Positions 5,714 through 60,637 of a stretch of DNA of 64,000 nt are shown piece after piece; the first letter of the stretch is position 1; every line of letters begins with the position of its first letter. Source of the DNA: Escherichia phage Pollock. Both the position numbers and the translations under genes were made by a program. The notes under the pieces were generated by a model that ran no database searches, was not told the DNA's origin, and worked only from the letters and a program-made list of their open reading frames with translations. Location of the stretch: the sequence record NC_027381.1; one strand, given 5' to 3'.

Positions 5714-6163
5714 ATGGGTTTATTTGGTTTTGGTAAGAAAAAAGTTAGTCAGAAAGTAGAACAAATGCGAGCTACCGCTGGAAAGATGGAAAATAAAGAT
5801 ATCGTTGAAGCAGGTATCGCTGTAATGGTTGGTGTAGCATTTGCAGATAAATCTTGCTCTGATGAAGAAATTGAAATTCTGGAAAATATCATTGAATCTG
5901 ATGACACCTTTGCAGAATGGCGTTCTGAAACTCAGGCAATGACTAATAAATGGATAAGCAAATTCCAGAAATTCCATCGTGGTGCAATGATGGATTTGGA
6001 AAAAGAATTTAACGACCTGAAAGGAGACCCTGCTGGTCAGAAACGTGCTTTGCTGTGTGGTATTGCCGTAGCAGAAGATGATGAAGGCATGGGTGCAGAA
6101 GAAAAAGCTTTTCTTGAAAAAGTTGCAGGTTGGGCAGGCATCCGTTTGGATACTTTACTGTAA
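5714..6163 (+). CDS. TerB-like protein (tellurite-resistance TerB domain family)
   Basis: 149 aa; two-part helical architecture with acidic blocks (SDEEIEILENII ... AEDDEGMGAEEKAFLEKVAGWAGI) recognised by eye as TerB-like; not database-verified. Confidence 0.45.
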   Translation: MGLFGFGKKKVSQKVEQMRATAGKMENKDIVEAGIAVMVGVAFADKSCSDEEIEILENIIESDDTFAEWRSETQAMTNKWISKFQKFHRGAMMDLEKEFNDLKGDPAGQKRALLCGIAVAEDDEGMGAEEKAFLEKVAGWAGIRLDTLL

Positions 6164-6317
6164 ATGGCACTGAAATTACGAGGAATAATAGTAGCCGTAT
6201 TATTGTTCCTTGTAGTTGCTATCGACTTCACTAGTAAGGTGATGTCGATACTAGCAGACGGTGTATTAGTTGCTGCTGTAATAGCAATAATGTGGCCTGT
6301 ATTTAAAAGGACTAACA

Positions 6318-6650
6318 ATGAGTAAACCAAAAATTGAAATTGAAAAGATTGATGCTTTACGTAATGCATTTAATGCAATGTACGTATCTCATCAAGAAAT
6401 ATCTGTAGGTGATATTGTTATTCTACACCCTTCAGTTCCGGGAATTTTTAAAGTTCCTACTGAAGAACGTCCGGGTATCGTTACTAAATTTCTACCAAAA
6501 CCAATGTATGCGTATGAAATGGCTGACGATACACGTCCAAGCCATCCTTCTTCAGCAATACAATATGATTGTGTAATCAATATCATTAATGACGATGGTG
6601 AAATTGTTCCATTCTTAATGGATTCTCGTCGCCTCCTTAAAGTTAATTAA
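6318..6650 (+). CDS. hypothetical protein
   Basis: 110-aa ORF followed by terminator. Confidence 0.4.
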   Translation: MSKPKIEIEKIDALRNAFNAMYVSHQEISVGDIVILHPSVPGIFKVPTEERPGIVTKFLPKPMYAYEMADDTRPSHPSSAIQYDCVINIINDDGEIVPFLMDSRRLLKVN

Positions 6651-6655
6651 TCTAT

Positions 6656-6690
6656 AAGCCTACTTAGTAGTAGGCTTTCATTTTTCATCT
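6656..6690 (+). terminator. rho-independent terminator
   Basis: aagcctac-ttagta-gtaggctt hairpin followed by tcatttttcat. Confidence 0.55.
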
Positions 6691-6704: not shown

Positions 6705-6788
6705 ATGCGTCCTACAGCTATTAAAAAAGCTATTGAAAGAGCTTTTGCAGCAGGACTTGTTCCTTTTATTAAAGGTAGTCCGGGTATT
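6705..6788 (+). CDS. MoxR-like AAA+ ATPase, exon 1 (ends inside Walker A: ...FIKGSPGI)
   Basis: ATG 6705; reading frame stops immediately after GSPGI (TGA at 6789); the GKS that completes the P-loop is at 7179. Confidence 0.55.
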
Positions 6789-7178
6789 TGATTTTACAAG
6801 ATACCCTAAGCAGTGATGCTTAGTAAAAAATCCCTTGAATTGCTGGAAACCCTTAAAGCTGAATTAACTACTGCGAGTTGAAAAACAAAGCCAATGTTTA
6901 AAAATAATTCAGATATGTAGGCAATCAGCAGCCAAGCTCCTAAGGTTTAGGATATTAAGCTATGGAGAAGGTTCAACGACTAGGCGTAAGCCGTACACTC
7001 AAGTGAGTGGAAGTGGGGGACTCTTTACAAACTTACCACCATGGAATACCTTTTGTATTTGCAAAGAAAGGTCTATGTCGTAAATGTAGTAAAGATGAAG
7101 ATATAGTCTCGTCTTATGTGAAAGCATAAGCTGTTTAATAAACAGAGGGTAGCTTAACGAACTACCCTGAAGATTACG
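6789..7178 (+). ncRNA. group I intron 1 (ORF-less), interrupting the AAA ATPase Walker A
   Basis: ~390 nt between exon end (last nt T) and exon 2 (preceded by G); contains AACGACTAGGCG...CTCAAGTGAGTGGAAG core-like element shared with intron 2; exact boundaries approximate. Confidence 0.5.
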
Positions 7179-7421
7179 GGTAAATCTGCAATTATTCGTC
7201 AAATTGCAAAAGAAGCTAAATTATTGGTTATTGACCTTCGTTTAGGTCAATGTGACCCAACTGATTTATTGGGATTTCCAAATATTGAGAATGGACGGTC
7301 TGTATATCATCCACCAAAAGATATTCCAATTATTGGGGATGAAATTCCTAAAGGATATAACGGTTGGCTGTTATTCCTTGATGAAATGAATACAGCACCT
7401 AAAGCTGTTCAGGCTGCTGCT
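7179..7421 (+). CDS. MoxR-like AAA+ ATPase, exon 2 (GKSAIIRQIAKEAKLLVIDLRLGQ ... Walker B LLFLDEMN)
   Basis: no start codon or RBS of its own; in-frame stop at 7155 upstream; ends with stop directly after AVQAAA. Confidence 0.55.
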
Positions 7422-8265
7422 TAAATTAATAGGCATTTATGGGGGAAACCTCATATCTAAAGCTACTTAAAACGGGGAACTCTTAGTAGTGTATATACAC
7501 TAAAGACAATCCGTTGCTAAATAGGAATTAAGATGCAAGAAGTTTGGAAAGCTATTCCCGGATATGAGAAAGAATATGAAATTTCTACTCATGGACGGAT
7601 TAAGAGTTTAGATAGAGTCGTTCCTTGTAAACATGGCACTCGCCTTGTTAAAGGAAAATTATTAAAAACCTATATTAATCGAAAAGGGTATTTAATTGTT
7701 ACTTTATCTAAAGAAAATAAACTGAAAACATATACCGTACATCAGTTAGTTGCTCTTACATTTATTCCAAATTTCATTAAAGGCACAGAAATTAATCATA
7801 AAGACGGTAATAAATCCAATCCAGTATTAGATAATTTAGAAATTAGCAACCCTAGCCATAACCAGTTACATGCTATAGCTACAGGTCTTAAAGCAAAGGT
7901 TGGTAAGAGTAAATACCACAATGTAACTTACATTAAAAACCCACGGGCTAAGAAAAAGTGGGCTGCAAGTATAAGTTATAATGGGGAAAAATCTTTTGGA
8001 TGGAAAACATTTATGACAGAAGAAGAAGCTGCAAGATATGTAGATAAACTTCTTGATGAAATAGGTGATACTTCCCGTTTAAGAAATTTCTAATTAATTC
8101 CTTAAATGCCCAACGACTAGTCGAAAGACGTAGGCTCAAGTGAGTCGAAAAAGTAGCTCCCCAAACAAGTAAAGTTGTGGGGATTGATATAGTCTGCTCT
8201 ATATAGAAATATATAGCTGGATTAATTATCCGGGTAATGATTAACGACCATTACTGAACATAAGG
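7422..8265 (+). mobile_element. group I intron 2 carrying an HNH homing endonuclease ORF (td-like)
   Basis: 7462-7530 CTTAAAACGGGGAACTCTTAGTAG...AGACAATCCGTTGCTAAATAGG closely matches the phage T4 td intron core as recalled; ORF begins right after this element; 3' part has CAACGACTAGTCG...CTCAAGTGAGTCG. Confidence 0.65.
7533..8093 (+). CDS. HNH homing endonuclease (intron-encoded)
   Basis: 186 aa; N-terminal WKAIPGYEKEYEISTHGRIKS, HNH core NHKDGNKSNPVLDNLEISNPSHNQLH, C-terminal AP2-like DNA-binding region. Confidence 0.8.
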   Translation: MQEVWKAIPGYEKEYEISTHGRIKSLDRVVPCKHGTRLVKGKLLKTYINRKGYLIVTLSKENKLKTYTVHQLVALTFIPNFIKGTEINHKDGNKSNPVLDNLEISNPSHNQLHAIATGLKAKVGKSKYHNVTYIKNPRAKKKWAASISYNGEKSFGWKTFMTEEEAARYVDKLLDEIGDTSRLRNF

Positions 8266-8955
8266 TATAAACTGTTGGACCGTATGGTAGGACAAACCAA
8301 ATTACATCCTAGTGTTTATATTGCTGCTGCTGGTAACAAAGATACAGATGGAGCAATTACTACTACTATGAGTAGTGCAACTCTATCTCGTATTGTTAGT
8401 ATGGAACTAGAAGTTAACTTTAATGATTGGGCTGTATGGGCATTAGCCAATAACATTGACCATCGCATCATGGGATATCTTCAGTTCAAACCAGAAGCAT
8501 TCCATAAATTTGACCCTAAAAATCTTAAAGAACCTTTTCCATGCCCACGTACATGGGAGTTCATTAACCGTGCTATTAATGGATTAGATGTATCTTTAAA
8601 TTCTGATTTGGGTTTATTGTCTGGAATTATTGGTAATGGCACTGCTCGTGAATTTATTGAGTATTGTGCTATCTATGGTGAGATTGCTTCCTTTGAAGAA
8701 ATTATGTCTAATCCAGAAAGCATTGTCATCAAAGACAGACCAGACATTAAGTATGCATATGCTGGTTTTGTAGCTTCTCGCATTACCCCTGAAAATGCAT
8801 CTCAATTAATGAAATTCATTAATCGACTGCCCGTTGAATTTCAGATTGTAACTTTGAGTAATGCTTTTAAAGCTAAACCTCTCATTTCTCAAGTTCCAGA
8901 AATAATGGAATGGATTACTCGTTATGCCAACGAGTCAGGTGAAGGGATGCTCTAA
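8266..8955 (+). CDS. MoxR-like AAA+ ATPase, exon 3 (C-terminal part)
   Basis: AVQAAA | (YKL)LDRMVGQTKLHPSVYIAAAGN continues the AAA fold after Walker B; ORF track start 8275 is a TTG; 5' boundary approximate. Confidence 0.5.
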   Translation, partial: YKLLDRMVGQTKLHPSVYIAAAGNKDTDGAITTTMSSATLSRIVSMELEVNFNDWAVWALANNIDHRIMGYLQFKPEAFHKFDPKNLKEPFPCPRTWEFINRAINGLDVSLNSDLGLLSGIIGNGTAREFIEYCAIYGEIASFEEIMSNPESIVIKDRPDIKYAYAGFVASRITPENASQLMKFINRLPVEFQIVTLSNAFKAKPLISQVPEIMEWITRYANESGEGML

Positions 8956-10069
8956 TAAGGAGTTTCCTATGGATAAGAATAAAGCACTGGATTTAGCCAA
9001 AGTAGATTTATTTGCCCGTAAACAAAATACTTTTATTTGTTCCATCTTTTGCTCACTTCAGCTTAAGTGGGACGATACCATCCCTACAGCTTGTACTGAT
9101 GGTTTGAGTATCTTGATAAATCCAGATTATTTTATGGATTTACCACGTCCAATGCGAGTGACACTTCTTGCTCATGAGACGTGGCATGTTGCTTTAAAAC
9201 ATGTCTTAAGGGTTACGGGAAGAAATCCAAAATTATGGAATTATGCTTGTGATTATTACATCAATAATATGCTTGATGATGCTAAGTATGTTATTGGTAC
9301 TGGTTGGCTATTAGACCATCAGTATGATGGCATGAGTGCTCCAGAAATCTATAACAAGCTACAAAAATCCAGTAAAAACCTGCCTCAAAATTTATTAGGT
9401 ATGGATATTAAACCCTGTCCTTCTTCATCAGAAGAAGCTATTGAATCACAAATTGATTCTATGCTTATTCGTGGCTCTATTGCTGCAAAGCAAGGAGGAC
9501 AAGCTGGAAGTATCCCCGGAGATATCCAAGCATATATTGATGAGCTTCTGAATCCTAAATTACCTTGGAACGATATTCTCAGAAATTTTATTAATGAGAT
9601 GACTCGTAATGACTACACTTGGGCTAAACCTAATAAACGGTATTTGCCTGATATTTATTTACCTTCTCTAAATTCTGAAGGTCTAGAACATATCATTTTT
9701 TATACTGATATTTCTGGTTCAGTATCTGATACACAATTTGGTGTGTATATCAGTGAAATTCATGCAATTAAAACAACATTGAATCCAAAACGAATTACAG
9801 TATGTACGTTCGATACAAAGATTCATGAAGTGTATGAATTAGAAGAAGGAGATGATATTAGTAAGTGTACGTTTACAGGTAGAGGAGGTACATCTCTTAC
9901 TTGTGTGTATGAACATGCTAAGAAAGAGAAACCAGAACTCATCGTAATATTTTCTGATTTGGATTGTGCTCCAATGAAGGAACAACCTACACCTAATGTC
10001 ATTTGGGTATGTTTGGACAATCCAACAAAAACAGTTGATTTTGGTCAACTGATTCATGTGAAAAGTTAA
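8924..10069 (+). CDS. HExxH metallopeptidase-like / von Willebrand factor A domain protein (MoxR partner)
   Basis: 381 aa; LLAHETWHVALKH (HExxH); MIDAS-like IIFYTDISGSVSD (DxSxS); overlaps ATPase 3' end. Confidence 0.6.
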   Translation: MPTSQVKGCSNKEFPMDKNKALDLAKVDLFARKQNTFICSIFCSLQLKWDDTIPTACTDGLSILINPDYFMDLPRPMRVTLLAHETWHVALKHVLRVTGRNPKLWNYACDYYINNMLDDAKYVIGTGWLLDHQYDGMSAPEIYNKLQKSSKNLPQNLLGMDIKPCPSSSEEAIESQIDSMLIRGSIAAKQGGQAGSIPGDIQAYIDELLNPKLPWNDILRNFINEMTRNDYTWAKPNKRYLPDIYLPSLNSEGLEHIIFYTDISGSVSDTQFGVYISEIHAIKTTLNPKRITVCTFDTKIHEVYELEEGDDISKCTFTGRGGTSLTCVYEHAKKEKPELIVIFSDLDCAPMKEQPTPNVIWVCLDNPTKTVDFGQLIHVKS

Positions 10070-16151: not shown

Positions 16152-16396
16152 TGGATATCGCATTTGTAGTTTCCAAATTGATTGTTACAGAGTACACGTT
16201 GCTTAGACAATGGTGGCCTGAACAATTACGTCAATCCAGATATGTAGATAATGGAATGACTAGAACTTACTTCTTAGATACACATCCATCCCCTGAACTT
16301 CAAGAACTCATAGAAGAGTTACATAAGTTTGGGAGAGAGTATCGACTTATAGATTTAAGAGGAGTGGAAATAGATAATGCGTCATATAATCTTTGA
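16151..16396 (+). CDS. hypothetical protein
   Basis: 81-aa ORF. Confidence 0.35.
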   Translation: MDIAFVVSKLIVTEYTLLRQWWPEQLRQSRYVDNGMTRTYFLDTHPSPELQELIEELHKFGREYRLIDLRGVEIDNASYNL

Positions 16397-18323
16397 ACAA
16401 AATCAAAGATATCCAATCGCCATTCTTATTAAACCTCAACAACTAAAGAAGAAAGAGATATTAGAAGCTTATATCAATCCTACTGGAATCAAGCCAAATC
16501 AATTTATTGCATTTGACCTTGAGTACAATGGGAAAAAAGCTCCTGTATCTATGCAGAAAGACTATCTTAAAGTCTTACTACCAGAGCTTTGTAATTTAAG
16601 AACAGAATATATTCTGTGCTGTGATAGTGCATATTTCAAAACCTTAACCAAGCAATCTAAAGCAGAACCTCATTGTGGTTATGTATTGCCTTGTGTCATT
16701 CCTGGTTTTGAACATCTAAATATTATTTTCTGTCCTAATTATGCTCAGATTTTCTATGACCCTTCTGTACAGGATAAAGTTAATCTGGCTCTCAAAGTTC
16801 TAGTAGATAAGGTAAATGGTCAATACCAAGAGATTGGTAAGAACATTATCCATACTGCTTACTATCCTTCTACAGTTGAAGAAATTGAAGCTTGGCTTGA
16901 ATCTCTACATCAATATCCAATTCTAGCTTCAGATATAGAGGCATTTAGTCTTAAATTCTATAAAGCAGGTGTAGGTACTATTGGATTTGCATGGGACCAA
17001 CACAATGGAGGAGCATTCGCTGTTGATTATACGAATGAACCAGACAAGGCTGAAAGAATTAGGCAGGCTCTTAAGAAGTTTTTTGAAACTTATGAAGGCA
17101 AACTGATTTGGCATAACTCAAGTTATGACTTAACAGTGCTTATTTACCAGCTTTGGATGAATGGTTTAGTAGACCAAAAAGGATTGCTTAAGGGTTTGCA
17201 CATCATGTGTCGTAATTTTCACGATACTAAGATTGTGACATATCTGGCTACAAACTCTTGTGCAGGTAATGAGTTAGGGCTAAAAGCTCAAGCTCATGAA
17301 TTTGCAGGAAACTATGCACAAGAAGATATTGATGATATTACTAAAATCCCATTACCAGACCTTCTGGAGTACAACTTAATTGACTGTCTAAGTACTTGGT
17401 ATGTTGCAGACAAACATGCAGATACTATGGTATTGGATGAACAATGGGAAATTTATAATACTCTGATGTTACCTTCGCTGAAGAATATTATTCAGATGCA
17501 ATTAACTGGTATGCCTATTGATATGGCAGAGGTTAAGAAGGTTAAAGCAGAAATGATTAAAGAGCGAGATGGTTATCTTAGAGCCATCAAGTCATTTGCA
17601 GTAGTAGATTTGTTAGTTAACAACCTACGTAAACAACATGTTGCTACTAGAAATGCTACGCTCAAAACCAAGCAAATTACAATGTCTGATGAGGAGACAT
17701 TAGCAATAGAGTTTAATCCAAACTCTAACCCTCAAATGCAGGAACTTTTGTATGAAATTATGGGATTACCTGTAATTGATTTAACTGATTCTAAGCAGCC
17801 TGCTACTGGTGCAGATACTCTAGAAAAGTTAATTCATCATACAGATGATGATAGACAGAAAAAGATTCTTGAATGCCTTATTAAATATTCTAAGGTAGAA
17901 AAAATTCTTTCTGCATTTATACCTGCATTCGAAGAAGCACCTTTAGCTGAAGATGGTACTCATTATTTATTCGGAAGCTATAACTTAGGTGGTACTGTAT
18001 CTGGTCGTTTGAGTTCATCAAAACCAAACATGCAACAAATTCCTTCCTCTAAGAGTCCTTACGCCAAACCTATAAAACGATGTTTTAAAGCTGGTAAAGG
18101 TTGGCTTCTTATTGGATTAGATTTTGCATCTCTTGAAGACCGTATTTCTGCTCTAACAACCAAAGACCCTAATAAATTGAAAGTGTATATGGGGGTGAAT
18201 GTTTATACGGTTACTATAGAGGGGGTTGACCATCATATTCGAGATGACGATACAATCATTTATGATGGTAAAACTTACACTGGTGAAGAGTTCTATGATG
18301 CTTTTACCTGTGGCCTTCTATGA
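16377..18323 (+). CDS. family A DNA polymerase, N-terminal polypeptide (3'-5' exonuclease + pol motif A)
   Basis: 648 aa; exo motifs ASDIEAFSL, YNLIDC; SGRLSSSKPNMQQIP; motif A LDFASLEDRI; homology ends near KVYMG (~18194) then reads ~43 codons into the inserted HNH element. Confidence 0.8.
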   Translation: MRHIIFEQNQRYPIAILIKPQQLKKKEILEAYINPTGIKPNQFIAFDLEYNGKKAPVSMQKDYLKVLLPELCNLRTEYILCCDSAYFKTLTKQSKAEPHCGYVLPCVIPGFEHLNIIFCPNYAQIFYDPSVQDKVNLALKVLVDKVNGQYQEIGKNIIHTAYYPSTVEEIEAWLESLHQYPILASDIEAFSLKFYKAGVGTIGFAWDQHNGGAFAVDYTNEPDKAERIRQALKKFFETYEGKLIWHNSSYDLTVLIYQLWMNGLVDQKGLLKGLHIMCRNFHDTKIVTYLATNSCAGNELGLKAQAHEFAGNYAQEDIDDITKIPLPDLLEYNLIDCLSTWYVADKHADTMVLDEQWEIYNTLMLPSLKNIIQMQLTGMPIDMAEVKKVKAEMIKERDGYLRAIKSFAVVDLLVNNLRKQHVATRNATLKTKQITMSDEETLAIEFNPNSNPQMQELLYEIMGLPVIDLTDSKQPATGADTLEKLIHHTDDDRQKKILECLIKYSKVEKILSAFIPAFEEAPLAEDGTHYLFGSYNLGGTVSGRLSSSKPNMQQIPSSKSPYAKPIKRCFKAGKGWLLIGLDFASLEDRISALTTKDPNKLKVYMGVNVYTVTIEGVDHHIRDDDTIIYDGKTYTGEEFYDAFTCGLL

Positions 18324-18840
18324 ACAACGGTATAAGATTTTTGATGAAGGTTTCATCTTAAATCTTGCAAACAATCAACTCCTAAAACCAATTCTCAATT
18401 CTAATGGATACCTTAAAGTTGGATTAGCTAATGGTGATGGTACTCATCATCAAGAGCTACTTCATATTCTGGTAGCTAAACACTTCATTCTAAATCCTTA
18501 TGGCTACAAACAGGTAAACCATAAAGATGGTAATAAACTGCATTGCCATAAGGACAATCTGGAATTGTGTTCTGCTACTCAGAACGTCAAACATGCATTT
18601 AAAACAGGACTACGCCCCGGTTATATGTCTGCTGATGATAAAGAGAAATATCTCTTTGAGGTACTAGCAGGCAAGCAAGTTAAGGACATTGCTTTTGAAA
18701 TAGGCAGACGTCCTGAAACTCTGCACAAGATGCTTAGAATCACTGCTGACCGACTTGGTATCCGAAATGAATGGGACGATGTTATGAGGAGAAATAGAAA
18801 AGATGTTGCTTTACGACAGCTTGCCAAAATCAACTCATGA
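18226..18840 (+). CDS. HNH homing endonuclease inserted within the DNA polymerase gene
   Basis: 204 aa; HNH core VNHKDGNKLHCHKDNLELCSATQNVKH; different frame from both polymerase parts; true start may be an internal Met (~18295). Confidence 0.7.
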   Translation: MTIIFEMTIQSFMMVKLTLVKSSMMLLPVAFYEQRYKIFDEGFILNLANNQLLKPILNSNGYLKVGLANGDGTHHQELLHILVAKHFILNPYGYKQVNHKDGNKLHCHKDNLELCSATQNVKHAFKTGLRPGYMSADDKEKYLFEVLAGKQVKDIAFEIGRRPETLHKMLRITADRLGIRNEWDDVMRRNRKDVALRQLAKINS

Positions 18841-19663
18841 CTTCACTGGCAAGAAAATTGACAACGTAGTCAAGGCTGGTAATTCGTCAGGGTATGATGG
18901 TCATAGTTTGAGGGCATTTGCTTACTTTGGCGACCAGATGCCTGATATTGTAGATACTGTGGAAAGTATCAATAGTATTCAGGAATTATATAAGGACTTT
19001 AGACAAGACTCTAAAGCTCCTACTTTTGCATTAACTTATCAAGGTACTTATCACACATTAATGGCTAACTGTGGTTTCCCAGAGGATAAAGCCAAAATGG
19101 TTGAGAAGAGGTATCACGAACTCTACTTCGTATCTGACCAATGGGTAAACGCTAAATTAACTCAAGCCAGTAAAGATGGATATATCACTGCTGCATTTGG
19201 ATTAAGAATCCGTACTCCATTACTTAAAAATGTTGTCTGGGGAATTAAACAAACTCCTTATGAAGCTAAAGCTGAAGGCAGAACTGCTGGAAATGCTTTA
19301 GGTCAATCATGGTGTTTATTAAATAACAGGGCAGCAAATGAATTTATGGAACGAGTATGGAATTCTCCATACGCATATGTAATTAAACCATGTGCTCAAA
19401 TCCATGATGCTCAATATTATCTGGTTCCAGATAACATCGACATTGTTCATTGGGTTAATGAAAATTTAGTCGAATGTATTGAGTGGCAAAACCATCCTGA
19501 TATTTATCACGATAAAGTGAAATTAGGAGGGGAATTAAGCGTCTTTTATCCATCATGGGCTAATGATATTTCATTGAAAAATGGAGCCTCTAAAGAGGAA
19601 ATCTTAAGCACATGTGAAATTGGATTAGATAAGTATCTTTACCCGGAGAAATATAAAAAATGA
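18803..19663 (+). CDS. family A DNA polymerase, C-terminal polypeptide (motifs B and C)
   Basis: 286 aa; YDGHSLRAFAYFGD (cf. Pol I DIHRATAAEVFG), motif B-like RQDSKAPTFALTYQGTY, motif C QIHDAQYY; own ATG overlapping the HNH ORF 3' end. Confidence 0.8.
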   Translation: MLLYDSLPKSTHDFTGKKIDNVVKAGNSSGYDGHSLRAFAYFGDQMPDIVDTVESINSIQELYKDFRQDSKAPTFALTYQGTYHTLMANCGFPEDKAKMVEKRYHELYFVSDQWVNAKLTQASKDGYITAAFGLRIRTPLLKNVVWGIKQTPYEAKAEGRTAGNALGQSWCLLNNRAANEFMERVWNSPYAYVIKPCAQIHDAQYYLVPDNIDIVHWVNENLVECIEWQNHPDIYHDKVKLGGELSVFYPSWANDISLKNGASKEEILSTCEIGLDKYLYPEKYKK

Positions 19664-60307: not shown

Positions 60308-60384
60308 CGGAATGTAGCACAGCCGGGTAGTGCATCTGCTTTGGGAGCAGAGGGTCATAGGTTCAAATCCTATCATTCCGACCA
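60308..60384 (+). tRNA. tRNA-Pro (anticodon UGG)
   Basis: hand-folded cloverleaf: acceptor CGGAATG/CATTCCG, anticodon loop TTTGGGA, T-loop TTCAAAT, encoded CCA. Confidence 0.75.
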
Positions 60385-60389
60385 AATTA

Positions 60390-60467
60390 TTCCCGTTTAG
60401 CTTAATTGGTTAAAGCACCCGACTCATAATCGGATGATTACAGGTTCGAATCCTGTCACGGGAACCA
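60390..60467 (+). tRNA. tRNA-Met or Ile2 (anticodon CAU)
   Basis: hand-folded: anticodon loop CTCATAA, T-arm ACAGG-TTCGAAT-CCTGT, encoded CCA; exact 5' end ambiguous by 1 nt. Confidence 0.65.
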
Positions 60468-60471
60468 AAAT

Positions 60472-60547
60472 GCATCCTTAGCTCAATGGATAGAGCAGTA
60501 GCCTTCTAAGCTATTGGTTACAGGTTCGAATCCTGTAGGATGCACCA
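60472..60547 (+). tRNA. tRNA-Arg (anticodon UCU)
   Basis: hand-folded: acceptor GCATCCT/AGGATGC, anticodon loop CTTCTAA, T-loop TTCGAAT, encoded CCA. Confidence 0.75.
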
Positions 60548-60552
60548 TATTA

Positions 60553-60637
60553 GGGAGTATGGTGAAATTGGTAAACACAAGGGATTTAAAATCCCTCGCT
60601 TAATTGCTTACGAGTTCGAGTCTCGTTACTCCCACCA
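60553..60637 (+). tRNA. tRNA-Leu (anticodon UAA)
   Basis: hand-folded: acceptor GGGAGTA/TACTCCC, anticodon loop TTTAAAA, long variable arm, T-loop TTCGAGT, encoded CCA. Confidence 0.75.

Follow-up and report, generated by a model that had tools for sequence, protein, structure and literature searches.

How does a phage make a full-length ATPase from a gene whose Walker A motif is cut in two by a stop codon? This question is raised by positions 6705–8955 of Escherichia phage Pollock. The window, i.e. the whole stretch of DNA analysed, comprises 64,000 nucleotides (nt) of sequence record NC_027381.1, one strand read 5′ to 3′, with a G+C content of 36%. The original prediction, made from the letters of this DNA, had seen here a MoxR-like AAA ATPase gene interrupted twice by segments resembling group I introns. 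We conclude that the gp24-like AAA+ ATPase gene indeed consists of three exons and two intervening group I introns (Table 1), an intron/exon pattern far beyond chance. Judged by similarity, the window derives from an N4-like phage (Schitoviridae): a 25-kb stretch of it aligns at 81–100% coverage and about 82–83% identity with Salmonella phages FSL SP-076, SP-058, S5 and SP154 and Shigella phage B2, all members of the Schitoviridae, Humphriesvirinae, Ithacavirus, and Klebsiella phage Pylas follows at about 80%.

The borders were read from the frames and from intron-less relatives. As had been claimed, the open reading frame (ORF) from 6705 stops right after GSPGI, with TGA at 6789–6791 directly following these codons. 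The frame of exon 2 opens at 7179 with GGT AAA TCT (GKS, continuing as GKSAIIRQ...); an in-frame TAA is present at 7155–7157, and not a single start codon lies between it and 7179, again as stated. This frame passes through LLFLDEMNTAPKAVQAAA and meets a second stop after Walker B, TAA at 7422–7424. The resumption that had been placed near 8266 proved exact to the base: exon 3 opens there with TAT AAA CTG (YKL, in YKLLDRMVGQ...) and closes with the stop at 8953–8955. Joining 6705–6788, 7179–7421 and 8266–8955 gives 1,017 nt and 338 codons with the frame intact. With a slash marking the junction, the expected ligated products read ...GGTATT/GGTAAATC... and ...GCTGCT/TATAAACT..., respectively. 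Below, the insertion site of intron 1 (GSPGI/GKS, which splits Walker A) is called site A and that of intron 2 (QAAA/YK) site B.

Comparison with other phages gives the same borders. In megablast searches homology to intron-less relatives breaks exactly at 6788, the breaks at query positions 189, 580 and 821 corresponding to window positions 6788, 7179 and about 7420; no record of the phage collection covers at least 80% of the 2.4-kb ATPase region, and none does so at high identity. The joined protein found matches in 805 phage records by tblastn, and in the ten closest of these its residues 1–338 align without a break to intact genes of 1,014 nt with 85–86% identity. Uninterrupted 338-aa homologues occur in the Salmonella and Shigella phages named above; at site B the intron-less gene of FSL SP-076 reads ...GCTGCTGCA/TACAAA.... 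The claim that an intact ATPase needs both segments removed is borne out by this colinearity.

The joined protein matches PHROG 1297 'ATPase' over residues 1–332 (E = 1e-121) and Pfam AAA_5 with 26.2 bits (cut-off 22), AAA also lying just over its cut-off. It has an AAA_5-type module with Walker A (GSPGIGKS), Walker B (LLFLDEMN) and sensor 1, and its sole match among solved structures is the AAA domain of midasin. The homologue in FSL SP-076 is annotated 'ATPase, COG0714 MoxR-like', and the gene at 8924–10069, which overlaps the 3′ end of the ATPase gene, supplies the adjacent partner with a VWA-like domain expected of a MoxR-type ATPase. None of the NCBIfam models, including curated MoxR families, matched at E <= 0.01. 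The label 'MoxR-like' in the original prediction is thus right at the superfamily level (AAA_5, VWA-like neighbour) and goes too far at the level of curated families. From these matches we predict that splicing gives a full-length AAA+ ATPase belonging to the AAA_5 (MoxR/CobS/midasin) clade. Because of the missing NCBIfam match and the membership in phage family PHROG 1297, we file it as 'AAA_5-clade, N4 gp24-like', not as MoxR proper.

The first intervening segment is recognised by the Rfam group I model RF00028 at 6778–7130 with 101.4 bits (gathering score 50; E = 4e-25 for the whole window). The match spans the full model, 1–253, with no truncation, and the minimum free energy (MFE) fold has z = −2.9. 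In P1 the U6788–G6800 wobble defines the 5′ splice site, and positions 6790–6797 can, as read from the sequence, pair with exon 2 bases 7180–7186 as P10. For this intron the compensatory-change test covered P1 only. At site A the exon and guide sequences covary (GGGUAUU/GAUACCC in the window, GGAAUU/GAUUCC in the IMG/VR contig L011, GGUGUU/GACACC in Vibrio phage JA-1), and the exon-side changes across these three phages are synonymous or conservative; the 5′ splice site is therefore fixed independently of the protein alignment. An insert at 6983–7011 in the Rfam alignment is equivalent to P7.1/P7.2, and hairpins P9.1/P9.2 lie at 7131–7168.

What intron 1 has lost can be seen from L011, a 73-kb N4-like phage with 71% identity in the ATPase. 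Its intron sits at the same site, is homologous to intron 1 (about 89–91% identical over the core), measures 888 nt and holds an HNH endonuclease ORF of about 185 aa inside the P8 loop. The last codons of this ORF (...SKDEDIVSSYVKA, then the stop) double as the P8 3′ strand, J8/7, the P7 3′ strand and P9. Relative to L011, exactly 498 nt of the HNH ORF are gone from intron 1, an in-frame deletion with its junction at 7053/7054, and the codons left behind overlap the same ribozyme elements. Intron 1 is thus an endonuclease-less derivative whose HNH gene was removed by a clean deletion. JA-1 has a more distant relative of intron 1, also at GSPGV/GKS, with an Rfam score of 52 bits.

For the second intervening segment a permissive Rfam threshold was needed, as the scan at the gathering threshold reported intron 1 only. 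RF00028 then matched in two halves, 7412–7638 (P1–P6; 33.5 bits, E = 2.5e-6) and 8057–8216 (P7–P9; 28.9 bits, E = 6.4e-5), the E-values referring to a 1.9-kb search; the same permissive scan over the whole window gave no group I signal beyond introns 1 and 2. The halves are sub-threshold because a 561-nt ORF is inserted in P6a. When this ORF was replaced by a tetraloop, the single-sequence MFE fold contained P1, P2, P3, P4, P5/P5a, P6/P6a, P7.1, P7.2, P8, P9, P9.1 and P9.2 (z = −4.6).

The same helices are supported by covariation. RNAalifold, given six ORF-removed site-B introns, recovered P1–P9.2 unguided and gave compensatory changes in 41 of 72 pairs. Once P7 had been included as a pseudoknot, 96.8% of cells in the intron 2 structure are paired and 42/74 pairs are changed on both sides; none of 500 shuffles scored as high, and sliding the partners by 1–3 columns lowered pairing to 36–45%. 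P1 and P7 are invariant in the alignment and hence uninformative, and P7.1, P7.2, P9.1 and P9.2 all show compensatory changes. JA-1 and the metagenome contig L032 were excluded from this alignment, their ORF lying in P5 and overlapping the P5 and P4 3′ strands. With covariation counted as proof, intron 2 is a group I ribozyme, and the proposal that the intervening segments are group I-like holds for both, by Rfam match and, for intron 2, by covariation as well. The sequence-level hallmarks of RF00028 are found: a P3–P8 core with the P7 pairing GACUA–UAGUC, U–G at the 5′ site, terminal G (G7178 and G8265), a host frame left intact by excision, and compensatory changes.

The ORF inside intron 2 matches Pfam NUMOD4 (60.9 bits, E = 1.4e-16) and HNH_3 (28.1 bits, E = 1.5e-6), both over their cut-offs, and aligns over residues 5–136 with I-HmuI (PDB 1U3E; E = 4e-12), of which the equivalents of His75, Asn87 and Asn96 are kept. 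HNH-endonuclease PHROGs including PHROG 59 are matched too, and no NCBIfam model matches this HNH protein. An exact-sequence search for it in public assemblies gave no record. These similarities place the product in the HNH homing endonuclease family as an I-HmuI-like enzyme, with its activity predicted. As the Shine-Dalgarno sequence AGGA (7524–7527) sits within the P6a 5′ strand, the folded ribozyme should mask it. Neither this gene nor the endonuclease remnant in intron 1 had been noticed in the original prediction.

Taken together, we consider it highly probable that ordinary group I splicing removes two subgroup-IA-type introns from one pre-mRNA, intron 2 being mobile through its endonuclease and intron 1 immobile alone; the remaining doubt covers non-splicing decay and help-dependent splicing. 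The ATPase gene would be transcribed as one pre-mRNA with three exons, in which each intron would fold into a ribozyme. At each 5′ splice site, free guanosine would attack directly behind the U of the P1 U–G wobble (after 6788 and after 7421), and the released exon end would attack after the terminal G of the intron (7178, 8265). Exon ligation would yield the 1,017-nt frame and the 338-aa ATPase, with Walker A GSPGIGKS restored at junction 1. Both introns begin with an in-frame stop codon (TGA in intron 1, TAA in intron 2), as do all homologues seen, and from what is known of T4 introns this stop would halt ribosomes at the border and keep them out of the ribozyme. The endonuclease of intron 2 presumably targets co-infecting relatives, cutting or nicking their intron-less alleles and driving intron copying. 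The two introns would then represent different stages of the homing cycle, intron 2 with its endonuclease and intron 1 after the loss of its HNH gene. We know of no observed splicing for any of these ATPase introns.

Several points weigh against this account. Both halves of intron 2 stay below the Rfam gathering score of 50. Its covariation comes from six sequences, among which row kinship can inflate the shuffle control, and the row of Vibrio phage pVco-5 was partly misaligned by MAFFT between P7.2 and P8 owing to an extra hairpin there in pVco-5 and JA-1; the row was kept, which makes the pairing figures conservative if anything. In the endonuclease, Asp74 of I-HmuI is replaced by Asn, NH being found at this position in the whole subfamily. 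The ratio of nonsynonymous to synonymous substitution rates (dN/dS, Nei-Gojobori), 0.09–0.10 for the joined coding sequence (CDS) against four intact homologues and 0.03–0.13 for exons 1+2 and exon 3 separately, sums over a divergence possibly older than intron gain; the colinearity of the joined CDS and these low values indicate that the three exons are held under selection as one gene. And splicing of both introns in this phage is deduced from DNA, not from RNA.

If instead the intervening DNA stayed in the RNA, the ATPase would have to be made as separate polypeptides that assemble. An HNH gene does lie between exons 2 and 3, HNH insertions are known to split some phage genes in this way, and in the same window an HNH element in which no ribozyme was detected apparently splits a DNA polymerase gene, the downstream piece of which has its own start signal. 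Yet exon 2 offers no start at 7155–7179, and its first in-frame start, TTG 7224, would lose GKS; the first in exon 3, TTG 8275, has no upstream signal and lies three codons into conserved sequence; and a 28-aa exon 1 peptide with half a P-loop is implausible. Since exon 2 lacks a start signal and both inserts are complete ribozymes, with covariation-supported folds and correct U–G and terminal-G borders, we regard such a gene in pieces as extremely unlikely. It is likewise very unlikely, though a shade less so, that one or both introns, especially intron 1, no longer splice and that the ATPase is a pseudogene here. The 498-nt deletion inside the P8 loop of intron 1 could be taken for such decay; it took only loop and ORF sequence, however, leaving RF00028 matched over 1–253 at 101 bits, the 24 ORF codons over P8, P7 and P9 kept and the guide-sequence pairing intact. 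Neither a frameshift nor a stop is found in the exons, dN/dS is about 0.09 and the gene is conserved in 805 phage records.

We give a small but appreciable chance to genuine group I introns whose splicing depends on assistance in vivo, be it by host or phage proteins or through ribosome-dependent folding. The P7.1/P7.2 and P9.1/P9.2 architecture resembles that of the self-splicing T4 td and Twort introns; no result here counts against a need for help. Among eight introns of Bastillevirinae phages that spliced, four are reported to have needed infected cells, no splicing being seen in vitro (PMC11878797). An intein reading of the ATPase was considered and rejected. Improbable, in our view, is the further idea that the two introns move as a single linked unit and give rise to a side product at the RNA level. 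Intron 1, lying 243 bp from intron 2, could enter new genomes by co-conversion after cutting at site B, and one endonuclease would then maintain both introns. Because exon 2 is exactly 81 codons long and the introns share very similar 3′ tails, occasional skipping of exon 2 (from the 5′ site of intron 1 to the 3′ site of intron 2) could give an in-frame 257-aa protein without the P-loop lysine and Walker B, a possible regulatory or dominant-negative isoform. Independent-looking occupancy elsewhere, with site A alone in L011 and site B alone in six lineages, argues against obligatory linkage.

Group I splicing from two separate sites remains our preferred explanation, and the distribution of these sites among other phages was followed with pattern scans. 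A site-B intron is present at QAAA/YK in seven other phage or metagenome sequences: Pylas, L014/L022 (an IMG/VR/GenBank contig), VCO139/JA-1, pVco-5, and the metagenome contigs L024, L031 and L032. The metagenome pattern scan returned 14 loci, 4 of them true site-B introns (L022 being the L014 contig again) and the rest chance matches in unrelated sequence. Eight lineages, with ATPases 35–92% identical, carry the intron at a single fixed position. Both sites are occupied in JA-1/VCO139/JSF3 and the window, site A alone in L011, and site B alone in Pylas, L014, pVco-5, L031, L032 and, as a fragment, L024; neither intron is found in the window's closest relatives. A third site near residue 204–214 is occupied in Pseudoalteromonas phage pYD6-A, the record of which gives a join there. 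The view that two introns in one gene are unusual was overstated, given the occupancy of both sites in JA-1/VCO139 and the multi-intron phage genes already documented.

All intron-bearing alleles have GCU before site B; the pattern played no part in finding four of them, those of the window, Pylas, L014 and JA-1. In six relatives without the intron, GCA or GCG stands there. Either a requirement for U at −1 or homing with co-conversion of the flank would fit this difference. In JA-1 and L032 the site-B ribozyme holds another HNH ORF, which is shorter (128–142 aa) and lies in the P5 loop. With two HNH genes in two loops, the site-B ribozyme and an endonuclease gene have been combined more than once, and intron sites recur at the most conserved motifs of the N4 gp24-like ATPase. 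A division of site-A and site-B 3′ tails into two clean lineages was also tried; they did not separate (60–73% identity across groups), and we make no claim on which intron gave rise to which.

Table 1. Coordinates of exons, introns, ribozyme elements and neighbouring features at the ATPase locus of the window.
Feature	Position	Strand	Description and basis
Exon 1 of gp24-like AAA+ ATPase	6705–6788	+	28 codons from ATG 6705 (MRPTAIKK...FIKGSPGI); ends with GSPGI, first half of Walker A
Intron 1	6789–7178	+	390-nt group I intron without endonuclease gene; starts with in-frame TGA, terminal G 7178
P1 of intron 1	6782–6806	+	exon GGGUAUU 6782–6788 with guide sequence GAUACCC 6800–6806; sequence and Rfam alignment
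Remnant of HNH endonuclease gene in intron 1	7054–7129	+	last 24 codons and stop (VFAKKGLCRKCSKDEDIVSSYVKA, then stop); alignment with L011
Exon 2 of ATPase	7179–7421	+	81 codons; opens with GKS (Walker A, second half), includes Walker B LLFLDEMN and ends with ...VQAAA
Intron 2	7422–8265	+	844-nt group I intron with endonuclease gene; starts with in-frame TAA, terminal G 8265
5′ ribozyme half, intron 2	7418–7531	+	MFE fold mapped to window; outermost P1 pair 7418–7435 from Rfam alignment
Intron 2 P1	7418–7423 with 7430–7435	+	U7421–G7432 wobble = 5′ splice site
Intron 2 P2	7438–7444 with 7449–7455	+	MFE fold
Intron 2 P3	5′ strand 7461–7468, 3′ strand 8151–8158	+	MFE fold
Intron 2 P4	7471–7476 with 7510–7515	+	MFE fold
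Intron 2 P5/P5a	7481–7492 with 7497–7506	+	MFE fold
Intron 2 P6	5′ strand 7516–7517, 3′ strand 8108–8109	+	MFE fold
Intron 2 P6a	7523–7531 with 8094–8102	+	AGGAAUUAA with UUAAUUCCU; perfect 9-bp helix bracketing ORF 7533–8093
Homing endonuclease gene (186 aa), I-HmuI-related (predicted)	7533–8093	+	in P6a loop; Pfam, PDB, PHROG matches
3′ ribozyme half, intron 2	8094–8265	+	Rfam, RNAalifold, pair counts, MFE fold
Intron 2 P7	8115–8119 with 8190–8194	+	GACUA with UAGUC
Intron 2 P7.1	8120–8129	+	
Intron 2 P7.2	8133–8146	+	
Intron 2 P8	8159–8182	+	
Intron 2 P9	8199–8216	+	
Intron 2 P9.1	8217–8233	+	
Intron 2 P9.2	8234–8254	+	
Exon 3 of ATPase	8266–8955	+	229 codons and stop; YKLLDRMVG through sensor and lid regions to C-terminus
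Terminator-like hairpin with T-run, after upstream gene	6656–6677	+	consensus scan; putative
Downstream partner gene: metallopeptidase-like and VWA-like domain protein	8924–10069	+	Pfam DUF2201_N E = 7.6e-43, DUF2201 VWA-like E = 7.3e-25

Around the ATPase the order dUTPase, ATPase, VWA-like gene is shared with FSL SP-076. The small ORFs 5714–6163 and 6164–6325, located 5′ of the ATPase gene, have counterparts in FSL SP-076 annotated as tellurite-resistance (TerB-like) and 'TciB-like' small membrane proteins. Elsewhere in the window, at 60308–60637, the + strand carries a cluster of four tRNA genes: Pro (tgg), Met (cat), Arg (tct) and Leu (taa).

The DNA polymerase gene (family A, N4 gp39-like; window 16377–19663) is interrupted by an insert of about 695 nt at about 18189–18883, which holds an HNH ORF within 18226–18840. 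The polymerase is colinear with the intact enzyme of FSL SP-076 over residues 1–604 (to ...KLKVY, 18188) and 605–863 (from 18884). No group I signal was found in the 861 nt searched here, even at E <= 10. The insert starts with an ATG in frame with the upstream part, giving it a 44-aa tail (MGVNVYTVTIEGVDHHIRDDDTIIYDGKTYTGEEFYDAFTCGLL, then the stop), an extension peptide that no Pfam family matches; for the downstream part a separate Shine-Dalgarno sequence and an ATG at 18803 are present. The same element is present in Pylas (tail 74% identical) and, nearly identical, in the E. coli N4-like phages AlfredRasser, PMBT57 and VEc25 (tail 93% identical), whose polymerases are only 50–66% identical to that of FSL SP-076, the intact homologue of the window enzyme. 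GenBank records join both parts as if the insert were an intron; to us it looks more like a mobile endonuclease element splitting the polymerase into two polypeptides, which would measure 648 and 286 aa against 863 aa for a single enzyme.

Related introns were also seen outside the ATPase gene. Cores resembling intron 1 occur in two contigs without the ATPase, L016 (IMGVR_UViG_3300043399_000301, about 600–824) and L018 (IMGVR_UViG_3300005470_000024, about 7314–7505), with 73% identity to intron 1 over about 200 nt and an identical 24-nt P3–P4 segment; the intron subfamily is therefore probably present in other genes too. In Pseudomonas phage YH6 (NC_027388; Litunavirus) a group I intron at 1949–2214 (Rfam 82.7 bits) lies between two CDS both labelled 'RNA polymerase, N4 gp16-like'. 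The gene for the RNA polymerase II subunit thus appears intron-split; the intron is unannotated in the YH6 record, and phage Pa_WF01 labels the equivalent spot 'Intron_gpI'. In Vibrio phage JA-1 (NC_021540, 1098–3893), and also in VCO139 and JSF3, the records annotate two 'ATPase' fragments and two 'HNH endonuclease' genes; the JA-1 ATPase is one three-exon gene with group I introns at both window sites, its exon 1 (33 codons, ...GSPGV) being unannotated.

Parts of this picture were already known: the annotation of Pylas covers the site-B intron family, and JA-1/VCO139 have introns at both sites, though unrecognised. New here are the exact borders of both introns, covariation for the intron 2 ribozyme, the endonuclease-loss history of intron 1 and the ATPase as an intron hot spot, with three intron sites across the Schitoviridae. 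In practice, gene callers will give an essential-looking ATPase as two or three fragments or a pseudogene, an error that the JA-1 and VCO139 records show. Intron 2 is missed by callers because the default Rfam threshold fails with an ORF inside the ribozyme. Correct exon joins matter for therapy-candidate phages and for comparative genomics. The locus also sets two stages of the homing cycle side by side, an intact endonuclease gene and a clean loss that spared only the codons of the ribozyme core. As tools it offers a predicted I-HmuI-related enzyme with a defined, highly conserved target and two compact ribozymes predicted to be of IA type.

Among known systems, the nearest is the 'HNH intron' of Pylas (NC_049444, HYP73_gp35/gp36), for which the GenBank annotation reads 'ATPase split by intron; HNH homing endonuclease encoded in intron'; our literature search found no paper on Pylas mentioning it. 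Gene and codon boundary (QAAA/YK) are the same as for intron 2, the core is homologous, with P3–P4, P7 and P9 near-identical, and an HNH ORF (NUMOD4 and HNH_3) occupies the same P6a loop. Pylas has one intron only, whereas the window has two, and its ORF, about 65% identical at the nucleotide level, continues through the P6a 3′ strand into P7, whereas that of the window ends before P6a.

The Vibrio phages JA-1, VCO139 and JSF3 (Pacinivirus) have GSPGV/GKS and QAAA/YK both occupied, exactly like the window, in ATPases only 35–38% identical to that of the window. In JA-1, according to Fouts et al. 2013 (PMC3670811), gp24, DNA polymerase and gp43 are split by HNH genes, which 'may be carried on an intron'; the records of this group annotate ATPase fragments rather than introns. 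Unlike intron 1, the JA-1 site-A intron still has its HNH gene, and the site-B intron carries its different, shorter HNH gene (128 aa) in P5, not in P6a.

By their predicted folds both window introns are of the subgroup-IA type, which is defined by P7.1 and P7.2 between the P7 5′ strand and the P3 3′ strand and a P9.1/P9.2 extension. The T4 td, nrdB and Twort orf142 introns (subgroup IA2) have P7.1/P7.2 between P7 and the P3 3′ strand plus P9.1/P9.2, and in these elements the window introns are predicted to resemble them. The T4 td endonuclease ORF lies in a loop of P6a, like that of intron 2, and the T4/Twort introns are, as here, inserted at highly conserved codons. T4 td encodes the GIY-YIG enzyme I-TevI, whereas intron 2 encodes a member of the HNH family, and the host genes differ. 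With I-HmuI, the HNH nicking endonuclease of the DNA polymerase intron of Bacillus phage SPO1, the intron 2 ORF has in common the N-terminal motif WK.I.GYE..Y.VS; the C-terminal DNA-binding region is unrelated by sequence (by eye AP2-domain-like in the intron 2 ORF), and target gene and host phage family differ.

More than one intron per gene is, finally, known from the Herelleviridae. Two group I introns are reported in Twort nrdE (Landthaler 2002, PMC113830) and 45 intervening sequences in 37 genes of Bastillevirinae (Weglewska 2025, PMC11878797). There, in other genes and with splicing shown experimentally, protein-coding genes carry at least two group I introns with short exons between them, as in the window.

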